DNA of 10,530 nucleotides from NCBI GenBank assembly GCA_041640635.1, contig JBEPZX010000028.1, positions 1-10,530 on the forward strand. Direction: 5' to 3'. A program made the position numbers and the translations under genes. Shown in pieces: positions 2,382 to 10,530 of this stretch. Source of the stretch: Aquificaceae bacterium. GTDB lineage: Bacteria; Aquificota; Aquificia; Aquificales; Aquificaceae. Position 1 is the first letter of the stretch; every line of letters begins with the position of its first letter. A model generated the notes under the pieces. That model had not been told where the DNA came from. It did no database searches and saw only the letters and a program-made list of their open reading frames with translations.

Positions 2382-2799
2382 TACTTTTCTCACCCTCTAT
2401 TTTAGCTTTAAGGCTTAATAAAAGCTTATCATCAACTCTTTTAGGCTTATACCCCATCCTATCCATCAAAACACCCTCTAAAACCCTCATACGAGCTGTA
2501 TAACGACTATACTCCTGTTCAGCAAAAGCAAGAGTATCAGAATCTATTACAACCCCTTCTGGAGCCTTCTGAACGGTTCTCATAAGGTTATAACACTTTG
2601 TCCTTTCCTCTCTTACCAAACGAAGTAAAATCAATAGATCATACGTATGAAAAAGCTCCAGCTGTCCAAAGGGTAATTCCGCTTGTTCCAAATAAATAAA
2701 ATCTTTTAATTGTGGACGCTGCCTTTTCAATGGAGCGTCACAAAAACTACAATTATCAGCGAATTTTTCATTTATTGAACCGCAATATTTACAGTTCAA
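2374..2799 (-). CDS. Hypothetical protein with N-terminal zinc ribbon
   Basis: CKYCG...CSFCD; 4-nt overlap with the upstream ORF. Confidence 0.75.
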   Translation of the reverse strand: MNCKYCGSINEKFADNCSFCDAPLKRQRPQLKDFIYLEQAELPFGQLELFHTYDLLILLRLVREERTKCYNLMRTVQKAPEGVVIDSDTLAFAEQEYSRYTARMRVLEGVLMDRMGYKPKRVDDKLLLSLKAKIEGEKSNG

Positions 2800-3014
2800 G
2801 ATTGAAAATCCTTGCTATTTAAGAAGTTGAGTACCAATGCCCATAACTCGTCTGATACTTCCAATTCATATTCGCTGATAACTTGCTGATAAGATTGCAA
2901 CCCTTCAAAAAAACCTTGTTCACTTATAAAATATCGTTTAGAAGCATAATTGAATTCATTTACCCTCTCAATCACAAATTCATCATTTTCCTTATAAATT
3001 AATAATTTTTTCAT
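2796..3014 (-). CDS. Hypothetical protein (72 aa)
   Basis: ORF tightly packed in the operon, ATG start, acidic composition. Confidence 0.7.
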   Translation of the reverse strand: MKKLLIYKENDEFVIERVNEFNYASKRYFISEQGFFEGLQSYQQVISEYELEVSDELWALVLNFLNSKDFQS

Positions 3015-3020
3015 AGCTAC

Positions 3021-3413
3021 CTACACCCTATCCTTATAACGTTCTAACGCTAATTCACGAAAGAAAGCCGACATAGATTTTAAATCACGAACAGAAATTT
3101 CCTCACCGATCTTATCCCAAATATCTTTTGGGAGAGTAATAGAAACCTTTTTAGTTTCTCCTAAAGAAGGGCGACCAGTTCTTTCTTTTTTTGCTGAATT
3201 TGAATGTTTCAAATGCTCTGGTAATAAATCATACTTGTATGGTGGAATATAAAGTTGTTCAAGCATTTCATTAATTCTTTTATAGCCAATGTCCTCTTTT
3301 AAAGCTAATTGCATGAATTCATCTTCTAATTTCTTCATACTCACTTCTAGATCACTTACACCATTCCAACGAACATCATACATTTTTTTGTGGAAATCTA
3401 ATAATTCTAACAT
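3021..3413 (-). CDS. Putative ribbon-helix-helix (CopG-like) DNA-binding protein
   Basis: C-terminal GRPSLGETKKVSITLPKDIWDKI...SMSAFFRELA; start moved to ATG 3413 because of the GAAGGGG RBS. Confidence 0.75.
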   Translation of the reverse strand: MLELLDFHKKMYDVRWNGVSDLEVSMKKLEDEFMQLALKEDIGYKRINEMLEQLYIPPYKYDLLPEHLKHSNSAKKERTGRPSLGETKKVSITLPKDIWDKIGEEISVRDLKSMSAFFRELALERYKDRV

Positions 3414-3651
3414 GTTTATCCCCTTCTCTTTTAAAGTTACCTTTATCATAATGATTTAAGTAACTTTTAGTCAAGGAGTAAACAGGTTTAAAGAAAATAC
3501 TTTGAAATTTCATAACTTGAACATATCCAACAACACTATAATTTTTAGGGTTTTCTTTGAGGTGTACCAATTCATCTAAGAAAAAATGTTCAGCTTTTCG
3601 ATCCTTAAATATTGGCTTATCTGTACCTAAAATTTCATATGCTTTTAGCAT
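3376..3651 (-). CDS. Hypothetical protein (91 aa)
   Basis: AGAGGTGG RBS precedes ATG at 3651 (track start 3663 lies within the RBS). Confidence 0.6.
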   Translation of the reverse strand: MLKAYEILGTDKPIFKDRKAEHFFLDELVHLKENPKNYSVVGYVQVMKFQSIFFKPVYSLTKSYLNHYDKGNFKREGDKHVRIIRFPQKNV

Positions 3652-3693
3652 AAAAACTTCCACCTCTTTAATTCAATGTGATATACTCTGATT

Positions 3694-3752
3694 AGCGATA
3701 ATCAACATTCCGAACGCAATCATTAAACTGATAGCTTCGGATGTTTTTTTTT
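3694..3752 (+). ncRNA. Putative short antisense RNA / plus-strand terminator hairpin
   Basis: TGnTATACT at 3679-3687, then hairpin 3704-3745 and T run to 3752, opposite to the surrounding minus-strand genes. Confidence 0.45.
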
Positions 3753-3782
3753 GTTCTAAAAGTTTGAAAAGTTACATTATCA

Positions 3783-4151
3783 TTAGGATATACCTATTTT
3801 TTTAATGCTCCTACATTCAATTAGAGGTAAAAATGAAACCGTTAACTTTTCTAATAAGTTTTTTCTAATTTGAAAAATCATTTGTTCACTGTAATTCATA
3901 TCAATTGCAATTTTAATGATACTCCAATTTTCAAAATATCTAAGTTCAATAAACTTTCTTTCATTTGCATTCAAAATTTTCATCGTTTGTTCAACTATAT
4001 CAATTATCATTTTATATATTTCAGATTTCTCTTCAACTTCTCTACTAGAAGGGATTTTTAAACTATTATAACTATTAATAAATACTAGCATGTATGGATA
4101 GAGCCTTAACATATTCTCAATTTCCTTTTTAGTACTATCAGCCTTCTTCAT
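3783..4151 (-). CDS. RinA/ArpU-like transcriptional regulator (sigma-70 region 4-type HTH)
   Basis: IENMLRLYP N-terminus; LNANERKFIELRYFENWSIIKIAIDMNYSEQMIFQIRKNLLEKL; AAGGAGG RBS. Confidence 0.8.
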   Translation of the reverse strand: MKKADSTKKEIENMLRLYPYMLVFINSYNSLKIPSSREVEEKSEIYKMIIDIVEQTMKILNANERKFIELRYFENWSIIKIAIDMNYSEQMIFQIRKNLLEKLTVSFLPLIECRSIKKIGIS

Positions 4152-4177
4152 GTAACCTCCTTAGAAATTAATTCACT

Positions 4178-4321
4178 TTACTTTAATTCATTTATCAAAT
4201 TTAAAATTGCCTGTTCTAAATGTTTAAAACTTTTTTCTAATCTATGAAGAAGATAGAAAGAAATTGTAATTGGAAATCCTAAATTAGCAATTAAATTAAT
4301 ATAGTCCAATTGTTGTTCCAT
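4178..4321 (-). CDS. YvrJ family small membrane peptide (47 aa), not in ORF track
   Basis: MEQQLDYINLIANLGFPITISFYLLHRLEKSFKHLEQAILNLINELK; I.N.GFPI...YLL.R.E signature; GAAGGTGG RBS. Confidence 0.85.
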   Translation of the reverse strand: MEQQLDYINLIANLGFPITISFYLLHRLEKSFKHLEQAILNLINELK

Positions 4322-4342
4322 ATGTTACCCACCTTCATAAAG

Positions 4343-4356
4343 GGAACGTATGTTCT
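4343..4356. promoter_or_regulatory. LexA (Cheo/SOS) box
   Basis: gGAACGTATGTTCt matches GAAC-RNRY-GTTC; lies between the promoter and the yvrJ-like RBS. Confidence 0.75.
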
Positions 4357-4365
4357 CTTATTTTA

Positions 4366-4394
4366 ATTTTACCTTTAAAGTATAATATAATCAA
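4366..4394 (-). promoter_or_regulatory. SigA-type promoter of the yvrJ-like/activator operon
   Basis: TTGATT(4394-4389)-17 nt-TAAAAT(4371-4366); a divergent TATAAT at 4381-4386 may serve the plus-strand gene. Confidence 0.5.
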
Positions 4395-4423
4395 ATAATT
4401 TGGAAATTTTTACGAGGTGCTAA

Positions 4424-4711
4424 ATGACAATACTTACATTGGTTATTATCCTAAGTGTTATAAACTTAATAAGAGTAGGATTATCTCGATTTGCTAATAA
4501 AAATATAAATATCGAAGTATATGTTTCAATATTATATTTCTTAAATATTATTGTTCTCACTACATATATAATTTTGGAAAGAAACACCTTCATATATATC
4601 GATGGTACTTCAGCTCTACTCTATGTTTCATTTTTAGTCTTGTATGTGATCTGTATCTATTACATATATAAAAATATAAAAAGTTGGTTAAAAAAAGGCA
4701 CTCAAAGATAA
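4424..4711 (+). CDS. Small three-TM membrane protein, candidate immunity protein
   Basis: Three hydrophobic stretches, basic C-terminus, GAGGTG RBS, convergent with 4738..5355. Confidence 0.7.
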   Translation: MTILTLVIILSVINLIRVGLSRFANKNINIEVYVSILYFLNIIVLTTYIILERNTFIYIDGTSALLYVSFLVLYVICIYYIYKNIKSWLKKGTQR

Positions 4712-4723
4712 GTGCCTTTTTTT
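4690..4723. terminator. Bidirectional intrinsic terminator
   Basis: A7-GGCACT-8 nt-AGTGCC-T7 between convergent genes. Confidence 0.85.
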
Positions 4724-4737
4724 ATTACATATTTTTA

Positions 4738-5355
4738 TTAATATTTTAAATAATACATAGTTGTATTTCTCGAATGAACAGGAGAATTAAGATCATTCAA
4801 AGTCGTATACGTTGCTCTTACTCCTCCTGATACAGGTTCAAGAGTAGTACGGAATTTCCAACCTGCTTTTGGTGCTGGTGCAGCTTCAAGATTAGTATCA
4901 TGCCTCCAAACAGTGCTTACACTTGATAATAAACTTACAGCAGTTGCTGTTACAGCAATAGCAGCTCTTGATGTTAAACCAAGTGCAGAAAATAACGCTA
5001 TTACAGTTAATTGACCTTGTTTATAACTTGTAACATCATTTGTTGTATATGTGTAAGTATTTGAATAAGTAGATGATAAATGAACCTCTCTCTTTAAAGC
5101 ATCCCAAGAATATCCATTAGCAGTAGAGATTTTAACTCGATACTCACCAAAGTAAGGTACTTCTACAACTTCCCTTCCACTTGTAACCGAAGCACTATAC
5201 GTTTTTGTAAAAATCATTTGCCCGTCACCAGGTCTAAAAATTTGAAGTGTTTTTTGTAAAGTAGTATTACTATAACCCCAATGAATTAACAAACTTTTCA
5301 CATCTGTTTTTGAAACAAGTAGATTAAAATCAGTATTCCCTTCATGAATTGCCAT
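4738..5355 (-). CDS. Hypothetical beta-rich protein with internal hydrophobic hairpin; candidate bacteriocin/pore-former
   Basis: AAAGGAGG RBS; no N-terminal signal peptide; LTVIALFSALGLTSRAAIAVTATAVSLLSSV segment; Ser/Thr/Tyr rich. Confidence 0.75.
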   Translation of the reverse strand: MAIHEGNTDFNLLVSKTDVKSLLIHWGYSNTTLQKTLQIFRPGDGQMIFTKTYSASVTSGREVVEVPYFGEYRVKISTANGYSWDALKREVHLSSTYSNTYTYTTNDVTSYKQGQLTVIALFSALGLTSRAAIAVTATAVSLLSSVSTVWRHDTNLEAAPAPKAGWKFRTTLEPVSGGVRATYTTLNDLNSPVHSRNTTMYYLKY

Positions 5356-5438
5356 TTTTTGAATTCCTCCTTTTTTTGTTATGTTTTTATCATAAAATAG
5401 TTTGAATTCTATAAACTAAAGGAAAACTATACTAATAC

Positions 5439-5494
5439 TCTATTATTGATGATTATTATGTTAATAAAATTAAAGAGACTATTCTATTATTGAT
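5439..5494 (+). repeat. 12-bp direct repeat upstream of the 205-aa gene
   Basis: TCTATTATTGAT at 5439-5450 and 5483-5494 (44 bp apart). Confidence 0.65.
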
Positions 5495-5503
5495 CTGTTC
5501 TCT

Positions 5504-5559
5504 TTTGCCTTAAAGGCTTTGAAAGGTTGCCGTTAAGGCAACCTCCTATTTATAAGGAA
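5504..5559 (+). repeat. Palindromic element copy B
   Basis: TTTGCCTTAAAGGCTTTGAAAGGTTGCCGTTAAGGCAACC...TAAGGAA versus copy A reverse complement TTTGCCTTGAAGGCTT--AAAGGTTGCCATTAAGGCAACC...TAAGGAA. Confidence 0.85.
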
Positions 5560-9467: not shown

Positions 9468-9920
9468 ATGTCTGAATCTAAATTCAATAAAAGGAAATAT
9501 TTTAAAATTAGTTTATTTATATACCTCTTTTTTCTAGGGATATTTTATTTTTTAGAATTAGGTCCTACTTTAACTTTTAGATTGGGCAAATACTACAATG
9601 AAGTTTCTCATAACTTTATTCTTTTTTCGACTATTACAACTTACGTTTTAAATTTCGAACACTATAATTTAAGTACATTATTTTATAATATTTTCGGAAA
9701 CGTATTAATATTTGTACCATTAGGAATTCTAGTACCATCTATTTATCCTAATATAAACCGTTATCTACAAATTATTTATATTTCCTTTCTGATAAGTGTA
9801 ACTTTAGAAGGATTACAATATATAACTTCATTAGGTGTATTTGATATAGATGACATTATTCTTAACGTAATAGGTGGTATTTTAGGATTCTATATTTATA
9901 GATTGTTTTGGAGAAATTAG
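9468..9920 (+). CDS. VanZ family membrane protein (second, divergent paralogue)
   Basis: NIFGNVLIFVPLGILVP, SVTLEGLQY, GVFDIDDIILNVIGGILG; AAAGGAG RBS. Confidence 0.9.
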   Translation: MSESKFNKRKYFKISLFIYLFFLGIFYFLELGPTLTFRLGKYYNEVSHNFILFSTITTYVLNFEHYNLSTLFYNIFGNVLIFVPLGILVPSIYPNINRYLQIIYISFLISVTLEGLQYITSLGVFDIDDIILNVIGGILGFYIYRLFWRN

Positions 9921-9938
9921 ATAACTATAACATCTCAG

Positions 9939-9990
9939 TTAAAAAGAAAGGTAAACAACTTTAATTTTTGTTGTTTACCTTTCTTTTTAA
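9939..9990. terminator. Bidirectional intrinsic terminator
   Basis: 21-bp perfect inverted repeat TTAAAAAGAAAGGTAAACAAC / GTTGTTTACCTTTCTTTTTAA between convergent genes. Confidence 0.88.
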
Positions 9991-10391
9991 TAATCCCAAA
10001 TAGAACCGTGACCTCGAACATATTGTCCATCATCACCTTTTCTCATGGTAAATCCGTATTTTCCACCTTTTCCATCGGATATTGTCCATTCCCTTTTAGT
10101 TGTTCCGTTTCTATAAAATTGTCTTGTCGAAATAAACTCCCCAACTCCCCAACCATTATCTCTATACAAGTCTACATAATAGAATGCACTAGTACCGGCA
10201 TTTCCATAAGTAGAACTTGTATTTTCCATAGTTAATAAGTAATTAGGAGATTTCGGATAAAGAGAGAATAATTGAGAATTTAATTTATATTTAAAATCAA
10301 AGTTATATGCATAAGCAGAAGCTAAAGCCGCTGTTGGAGAAATCACTAAAACAAAGAGAGTTAAACTTAAAATTATTTTTTTAAATTTCAT
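9987..10391 (-). CDS. Secreted beta-rich hypothetical protein (Sec signal peptide)
   Basis: MKFKKIILSLTLFVLVISPTAALA signal peptide with AxA site; Gly/Tyr/aromatic-rich mature part; AGGAGG RBS overlapping the vanZ-like stop codon in the circular form. Confidence 0.85.
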   Translation of the reverse strand: MKFKKIILSLTLFVLVISPTAALASAYAYNFDFKYKLNSQLFSLYPKSPNYLLTMENTSSTYGNAGTSAFYYVDLYRDNGWGVGEFISTRQFYRNGTTKREWTISDGKGGKYGFTMRKGDDGQYVRGHGSIWDY

Positions 10392-10403: not shown

Positions 10404-10530
10404 CTAAAGATTTAATAGCTTAATATTCTTTTCACTATCTTTAGCAATATTATTTATTATTTTTATTAATAATGGACGAAGTAAATTTACTATCCAAAAA
10501 CCTATAATTGTTCCAAGTGTATTTAAAATA
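10404..10530 (+). repeat. 127-bp exact direct repeat, copy 2 (3' end of the vanZ-like gene; circular overlap)
   Basis: Identical to 404..530. Confidence 0.97.

Follow-up and report, generated by a model that had tools for sequence, protein, structure and literature searches.

What do the four small genes around a LexA box encode on a 10,530-nucleotide contig that was binned with an Aquificaceae bacterium (contig JBEPZX010000028.1 of assembly GCA_041640635.1; C28 of assembly G000 in our numbering)? The whole contig was analysed and is called the window below. The original prediction, which was made from the letters alone, proposed a colicin-like bacteriocin locus under SOS control, with a YvrJ peptide, an activator, a toxin and an immunity gene. 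From sequence comparisons, we read the locus, at a probability of about 0.55, as a class III bacteriocin cassette gated by the SOS response, which Bacillaceae plasmids and Lysinibacillus prophages carry as cargo. The linkage and order of the genes, the position of the box, the spacing of a pair of direct repeats and the domain anatomy are conserved, as seen below, and we infer toxicity, immunity, induction and release. The features are collected in Table 1.

Conservation of the cassette and its control sites

DNA encoding the toxin family was found at 18 distinct loci including the window, 16 of which were informative. The other two were a contig that ends inside the gene (L007) and an N-terminal fragment (L019). 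One more locus (L003) was dropped, as its match covers 32 residues and the profile does not match it. The far side of the cassette is visible in 15 loci (L032 ends). The full order of toxin gene, convergent transmembrane (TM) gene, LexA box, yvrJ and activator gene was present in 8 of the 15, namely the window and seven Lysinibacillus-type loci (L001, L006 and L035-L039), and the activator was present in 11. The IMM, ACT and YVRJ profiles used here were built partly from the scored loci, and the untrained matches are those of L032-L039 only. Since six of the eight complete loci are close kin, the complete cassettes are counted as three lineages, across which identities are 37-49% for the toxin, 25-36% for the TM protein, 47-66% for YvrJ and 33-73% for the activator. 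Co-occurrence of the four genes had been set beforehand as a test of the original prediction, and the genes, the box and the repeat spacing were found to be kept across all three lineages.

The box and yvrJ are gone together at L017, L033 and L034, where the toxin gene, the TM gene and the activator are kept; the toxin gene of L017 has an internal stop. Cassettes were located behind lysis genes or umuC/yolD-type genes, next to an integrase and on the plasmid represented by the window. These sites are unrelated and, therefore, the cassette appears to move as a unit. Of 401 Bacilli genomes, one has a member of the toxin family, as do five of 49 genomes of Lysinibacillus. Among 148 genomes of the assembly's own order, it was found only on the window.

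The sequence GAACGTATGTTC is the sole perfect GAAC-N4-GTTC in the window (expected number 0.09; present in 16 of 200 shuffles), which confirmed the LexA-type box that had been noticed. The window box alone is modest evidence, and it becomes strong because its position is kept in relatives. A box lies 16-22 bp 5' of yvrJ in all eight complete cassettes (chance of 0.002-0.003 per 40 positions), and each has GAAC-N4-GTTY at a promoter in this fixed position, as is expected of a LexA regulon member. LexA is present in the Lysinibacillus genomes G001, G150 and G178, and the core of the cassette box matches the boxes before lexA in 3/3 Lysinibacillus genomes. The SigA-like promoter was the weakest item of the original prediction. 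Two 9/12 matches were found (4406-4379 and 4394-4366), and a TATAAT/TATAGT-like hexamer lies shortly 5' of the box in relatives, but the number of promoter matches in the window is that of chance (48 vs 49.2). A second LexA box lies about 60-90 bp past the activator stop, before unrelated sequences, in 7/7 complete Lysinibacillus cassettes; the window cassette does not have it.

The activator had been called RinA/ArpU-like, which stands at the level of the superfamily. The 122-aa protein is above the Sigma70_r4 cut-off (PF04545; 25.5 vs 24.1 bits), as are the activators of L001 and L006, all being small proteins with Sigma70_r4 only. The identity with RinA or ArpU did not stand. The cut-off for RinA (TIGR01636) was missed by the window activator (24.7 vs 31.9 bits) and by its relatives (19.8-22 bits). 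ArpU (TIGR01637) gave no match for the window activator or four relatives, and the true ArpU genes of the same prophages pass. By sequence, the protein would belong with LtrA in family II of the Ltr activators, whose action is through short direct repeats (PMC3753634). The 12-bp direct repeats noticed 5' of the 205-aa gene were found, and the 44-bp spacing is shared by the window and 8 of 14 relatives examined (L001, L005, L006 and L035-L039). In L032 the pair is imperfect, with a spacing of 45 bp; L017, L033 and L034 have a single copy, and L002 and L016, which are without this activator, have no repeats 5' of the toxin gene. Window and Lysinibacillus repeats have different sequences but the same spacing, which would be expected of a site that drifts together with its activator.

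The activator was also followed outside the toxin loci. Ten matches were found on viral contigs; seven carry the toxin gene, and the other three align over the C-terminal half only and lie in ordinary phage late regions. Three of four plasmid matches were examined. The two closest relatives (L074 and L075) have a LexA box before the activator and a true holin after it, of the SPP1 type (PF04688) or BhlA (PF10960), and the third is a phage late region.

The window ends in an exact 127-bp repeat (bases 404-530 and 10404-10530), giving a 10,000-bp circle with a 403-bp tail (bases 1-403). Its GC content is 31%, and profile searches found a MobQ relaxase, a Rep-like protein and a MerR-type protein, for which the nearest plasmids are those of Bacillus, Peribacillus, Priestia and Sutcliffiella. 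LpxC and reverse gyrase are encoded in the remainder of the assembly (1.43 Mb, 98% complete), as in a diderm thermophile. LexA was not found in the assembly, and in tetranucleotide use the window is the farthest out of 120 10-kb segments. Because of its plasmid relatives, the missing LexA and the odd tetranucleotide use, the window is most likely a Bacillaceae plasmid that was mis-binned with an unrelated diderm thermophile, and its SOS box is, therefore, to be judged against Bacillaceae hosts.

Table 1. Positions of the cassette features (numbered along the window unless another locus is named).
Feature	Position	Strand	Remark
122-aa sigma70-region-4 activator, LtrA-like	3783-4151	-	small subfamily tied to the toxin family
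YvrJ peptide, 47 aa, release peptide candidate	4178-4321	-	PF12841
LexA (Cheo-type) box GAACGTATGTTC	4344-4355		22 bp before yvrJ start
Candidate SigA promoter(s) of yvrJ-activator	4366-4406	-	adjoins the 3-TM gene promoter region, back to back
95-aa three-TM protein, candidate immunity	4424-4711	+	convergent with toxin gene; from hydropathy
Hairpin between A and T runs	4690-4723		candidate two-way terminator of toxin and 3-TM genes
205-aa toxin candidate	4738-5355	-	no signal peptide; family without a name
Direct repeat, 12 bp, near toxin gene	5439-5450		candidate activator site
Direct repeat, 12 bp, far from toxin gene	5483-5494		44 bp from near copy
Second LexA box in relatives	L001 1986; L006 3530; L035 5653; L036 5672; L037 5660; L038 5655; L039 5655		

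The toxin candidate and its membrane partner

The 205-aa protein has a hydrophobic segment at about residues 113-151 and an N-terminus without a hydrophobic stretch. Each of the 21 aligned family members contains a hydrophobic segment (1.44-2.32) that is rich in small residues, none has a signal-like N-terminus, and most are basic. An AlphaFold2 model was made from the 21-sequence alignment (pLDDT 78.6). It consists of a seven-strand sandwich, a strand, two helices (105-129 and 139-152) and three strands, with pLDDT of 83-93 in the beta parts and below 50 at 127-156. The sheet thus carries an inserted hydrophobic helical hairpin at about residues 105-152 in the model, and both the hairpin and the absence of a signal peptide claimed originally were borne out by hydropathy and model. 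Residues 7-93 match FN3-like domains in fold searches (Z 9-10, rmsd 2.2-2.6), and the C-terminal part has no clear fold match. A hotdog-like fold was considered for this part and rejected, as the matches (Z 7.3, rmsd 3.5-4.5) are at background level; the domain modeled alone has a pLDDT of 65. The description as colicin-like holds for the logic of the locus but not for the fold. The model is a beta-sandwich and two helices on a beta-sheet instead of a ten-helix bundle, and fold searches with it returned no colicin row.

The family is absent from Pfam, NCBIfam, PHROGs (one tail match, E 0.034), PDB sequences, PADLOC and the ESM Atlas, and the protein had no match in PLSDB plasmids or sequenced phages. 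At E 0.001, 26 representatives were collected, one of which was a repetitive 1069-aa false match (P0015) and was dropped. The named members come from Lysinibacillus, Salipaludibacillus and Schinkia, all as hypothetical proteins. No longer, fused form was seen among 8000 candidates, which is weak evidence. RNA-library contigs from 4 of 24 listed runs were mapped onto L038. Two cover the toxin gene only, one covers scattered parts, and the fourth covers the toxin and TM genes with separate contigs on yvrJ and the activator. These contigs were not used as evidence because strand and level are not visible.

The convergent 95-aa protein shows three hydropathy peaks, in agreement with the three TM segments claimed, and has no family in Pfam, NCBIfam or PHROGs. 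The terminator it was said to share with the toxin gene corresponds to a hairpin with A/T runs, which is a candidate read from the sequence; an automated scan does not list it. A convergent membrane gene stands beside the toxin gene in 15 of 16 informative loci, the exception being L005, where another element is found. By position it matches the convergent membrane immunity genes of pore-forming colicins, with immunity being putative, and it encodes the fastest-diverging protein of the cassette. A complex prediction of the C-terminal domain with the 3-TM protein scored 0.01, which is evidence neither way. A class III bacteriocin is a protein of more than 10 kDa with an adjacent immunity gene (PMC5100339), and a 205-aa protein with an adjacent TM gene has this size and layout. 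A protein with a binding domain and a membrane hairpin but without a signal, encoded next to a convergent membrane partner, would have the anatomy of a membrane-attacking bacteriocin.

YvrJ, release and other explanations

The 47-aa peptide is a member of the YvrJ family (PF12841; 51.4 vs 29.5 bits, E 8e-14). It had been described as having a single TM segment; its hydrophobic part is only short and weakly hydrophobic (best 19-residue hydropathy 1.06), and a helix of strongly amphipathic character comes after it. A short helix with an amphipathic helix is the topology of the TpeE/BhlA holins (PMC9527704), which the hydropathy of the window peptide fits. It also weakly matched phrog_4898, which PHROGs labels as holin (E 5e-4), as did 8/8 others (6e-8 to 6e-3). 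YvrJ as a holin is suggested by context only, namely phrog_4898, holins in the same slot elsewhere and YvrJ beside a lysozyme or hydrolase. The claim of a holin-like YvrJ keeps this support, but the peptide is not always needed, as three loci keep the toxin, TM protein and activator without yvrJ.

YvrJ was found in 113 of 301 sampled Bacilli genomes, and the literature searched that names YvrJ gave no tested role. A "type II toxin-antitoxin yvrJ-yoqJ" label was not adopted, being an annotation without experiment in the part of the paper seen (PMC13269093). Twelve of 150 plasmid records with YvrJ were examined, hand-picked for range. A box lies within 1.2 kb upstream of yvrJ in 6/12 plasmid loci vs 4/30 genome loci. 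Two Paenibacillus plasmids (L080 2620-4951 and L083 2005-4226) have a box, a sigma-like gene and yvrJ. The cargo that follows is a lysozyme or wall hydrolase without a signal, paired with a convergent lipoprotein-like gene, and both plasmids look like a related cassette with swapped cargo. A box, an S8 peptidase without a signal and yvrJ are found on a Bacillus tropicus plasmid, along with a convergent gene for a 3-TM protein. Tentatively, and at less than even odds, YvrJ proteins may form a so far unrecognized family of small, holin-like peptides for release. The set of LexA box, sigma-like activator and YvrJ would then be a chassis under SOS control that is portable among mobile elements of Bacillota and takes swappable signal-less toxins with their own immunity genes. 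The proposed cargos would be the FN3-hairpin protein and 3-TM protein in the window, the lysozyme or wall hydrolase and lipoprotein in Paenibacillus, and the S8 peptidase and 3-TM protein in B. tropicus.

Other YvrJ plasmids were seen in this survey. On the Bacillaceae plasmids L082, L084, L085 and L087, YvrJ is near S8 peptidases, with sigma-like or glutaredoxin genes, and the three complete peptidases translated are signal-less. On Clostridium perfringens pCP-TS1 (L078 1881-4150), a sigma-like gene and yvrJ are divergent from becAB without a box, a layout that resembles activator and holin genes at other clostridial toxin loci.

Several findings weigh against the bacteriocin cassette or against a general release role of YvrJ. 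Six of the eight complete loci are near-identical (toxin identity 87-100%), and yvrJ and the box are missing from L033 and L034, where toxin and activator are intact. L016 and L018 have the toxin and TM genes with no activator, yvrJ or box in 12 kb, and a toxin relative (L002) is under a different sigma pair. The assembly is without LexA and, therefore, the true host of the window is inferred only. The equivalence of the window TM protein is positional, since phmmer with it misses the other TM proteins. No family or fold match assigns a function to the 205-aa protein, and there is no endolysin among the cassette genes. Against a BhlA-type holin, YvrJ gave an hhalign probability of 0.8% and no PF10960 match at E 0.1. 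Only the 4/30 genome YvrJ loci given above have a box within 1.2 kb; most chromosomal YvrJ genes stand behind DUF1659/DUF2922-type genes or with split sigma factors, without a box, and yvrJ of B. subtilis is in the SigO-RsoA regulon (PMC8103513).

The points on YvrJ also bear on the best-placed alternative, in which the same bacteriocin cassette uses YvrJ as a membrane accessory of sigma-like activators, for regulation or anchoring, and release occurs by prophage or general lysis. YvrJ is usually found with sigma-like genes: 7 of the 12 plasmid loci have an annotated sigma-like neighbor, yvrJ adjoins the oxdC/SigO-type locus L069, and at L042, L043, L055 and L061 it lies between the sigma4 and HTH_16 halves. 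Its place in the SigO-RsoA regulon, its loss in three prophage loci and the failed hhalign comparison are further points in favor. However, the yvrJ-less loci are prophages with their own holins, and the plasmid, which has no holin, keeps yvrJ. The matches to phrog_4898, the true holins in the same slot at L074 and L075 and the helix topology shared with TpeE/BhlA (PMC9527704) also speak for release, and we hold an accessory role to be less likely than not. At the four loci named, the second half is a small HTH_16-type gene (Pfam match in 3/4), and L043 has a small Cys-rich signal-less protein and then a convergent gene beyond the yvrJ block.

Another possible explanation is a suicide or abortive-infection module, in which DNA damage or phage switches on a membrane effector that kills the carrier and the 3-TM protein checks leaky expression. 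Prophage moron positions, the missing signal peptide and a two-step amplification that suits an all-or-none decision would fit such a module. PADLOC (2023 library), however, matched 0/4 window cassette proteins at E 0.1, an FN3-like domain suits extracellular binding, and a fast-diverging convergent membrane partner is the pattern of bacteriocins, all of which makes self-killing improbable. It is more improbable still that the protein is not a toxin and that a membrane-anchored FN3 protein with a membrane partner blocks a phage receptor or decorates virions. The FN3-like domains weakly match phage tail and structural proteins and the cassette is frequent in prophages, but a protein without a signal has no route to the surface, the hairpin is rich in small residues, sequenced phages gave no match, and the family also occurs both on a plasmid and at chromosomal sites that lack phage genes (L016 and L018). 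A pore-former against invertebrates or protists, with the TM gene a bystander, is the least probable. Lysinibacillus includes insect pathogens, but the single structural row in the aerolysin/Etx-Mtx2 comparison (Sip, Z 4.8, rmsd 3.0, 63 residues, rank 40) is within background, the inserted segment is continuously hydrophobic instead of an alternating beta-hairpin, and the convergent TM gene is kept in 15/16 loci.

Proposed mechanism and comparison with known systems

In the SOS-gated bacteriocin reading, LexA would, very probably, repress the yvrJ-activator operon, with DNA damage lifting the repression through LexA cleavage. The LtrA-like activator would then probably bind the repeats 44 bp apart and turn on the toxin gene. 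The signal-less toxin may exit the cell via the holin-like YvrJ, a step to which we give slightly less than an even chance, or by prophage lysis. The odds are somewhat in favor of an attack in which the FN3-like domain binds a receptor on the surface of related bacilli and the hydrophobic hairpin inserts into their membrane. Protection of the carrier by the fast-diverging 3-TM protein, expressed from its own promoter, would be a little more probable than this attack and a little less so than activation through the repeats.

The uviAB/BCN5 system of C. perfringens pIP404 is similar in its LexA site, its single operon for a sigma-like activator and a small holin-like peptide, and its signal-less bacteriocin with a hydrophobic part (PMC4459074; PMC9527704). 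UviA, a sigma factor, has both region 2 and region 4, whereas the cassette activator has region 4 only, and UviB is of the BhlA family in contrast to YvrJ. The BCN5 protein is large and made of several domains, and an endolysin is near it, unlike the 205-aa, FN3-like protein with its convergent 3-TM partner and no endolysin. Megacin A-216 of Priestia/Bacillus megaterium is DNA-damage-inducible and plasmid-borne, needs a sigma-like protein and has a small adjacent immunity gene. It is a 293-aa phospholipase A2-like enzyme, and by this description it is set apart from the 205-aa protein, which has no enzyme fold. Megacin A-216 is listed as a class III bacteriocin (PMC5100339). By analogy, the cassette would work like both of these systems but belong to neither.

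Pore-forming colicins (A, B, E1, Ia and N) share SOS control, a hydrophobic hairpin and an opposite-strand membrane immunity gene with the cassette (in part from PMC5100339). They differ in that the cassette toxin has no ten-helix bundle and LexA in the cassette would act via the activator rather than at the toxin promoter. The Ltr activators (RinA, ArpU and LtrA-C) are of about 110-125 aa, with a C-terminal sigma70 region 4 and direct repeats before the target (PMC3753634). Their target is terS downstream and they are gated by the phage repressor, whereas the proposed target of the cassette activator is an upstream cargo gene and its gate is a LexA box. B. subtilis SigO-RsoA (YvrI-YvrHa) also has YvrJ beside a sigma4-type protein (PMC8103513), but the cassette has no HTH_16 partner, has a LexA box and carries toxin-immunity-like cargo instead of oxdC. 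The L002 locus (2719-5015) is closer to SigO-RsoA, with a distant toxin relative and a convergent membrane gene divergent from a sigma4 and HTH_16 pair and no LexA box. Judging by sequence, this pair would be of the SigO-RsoA type, with the same cargo under another activator.

Two further features of the circle were noted. The region 9468-10391 and 404-1006, which is joined on the circle, encodes a protein of 134 aa that belongs to no family and has a signal-like N-terminus. It lies between two VanZ-like membrane genes, one upstream and one convergent, both far under the NCBIfam vanZ cut-offs; these are possibly a second secreted toxin with immunity genes. Copies of a 56-bp element, 82% identical and with an internal palindrome, lie inverted at 1127-1180 and 5504-5559 and bracket the block from rep to the toxin gene.

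On the whole, the co-occurrence and the SOS layout of the original prediction stood, and the colicin fold, the ArpU/RinA identity and a constant need for YvrJ did not. The cassette was not found described in the literature searched, which left most subscription journals outside. The regulatory logic is known from uviAB/BCN5; the toxin, its partner and the activator subfamily are without names. SOS-induced protein bacteriocins are typical of Gram-negatives, and to our knowledge few have been described in Bacillota (BCN5 and megacin). If the reading as a portable chassis with swappable toxins is true, the FN3-hairpin protein would represent a new, minimal architecture among the membrane-attacking bacteriocins of Gram-positive bacteria. 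The four genes form a compact 1.7-kb system with an unnamed toxin family, predicted operator sites and natural deletion variants, which makes every step testable at once. The cassette also gives YvrJ a concrete hypothesis, that this family may serve in the release of signal-less proteins.

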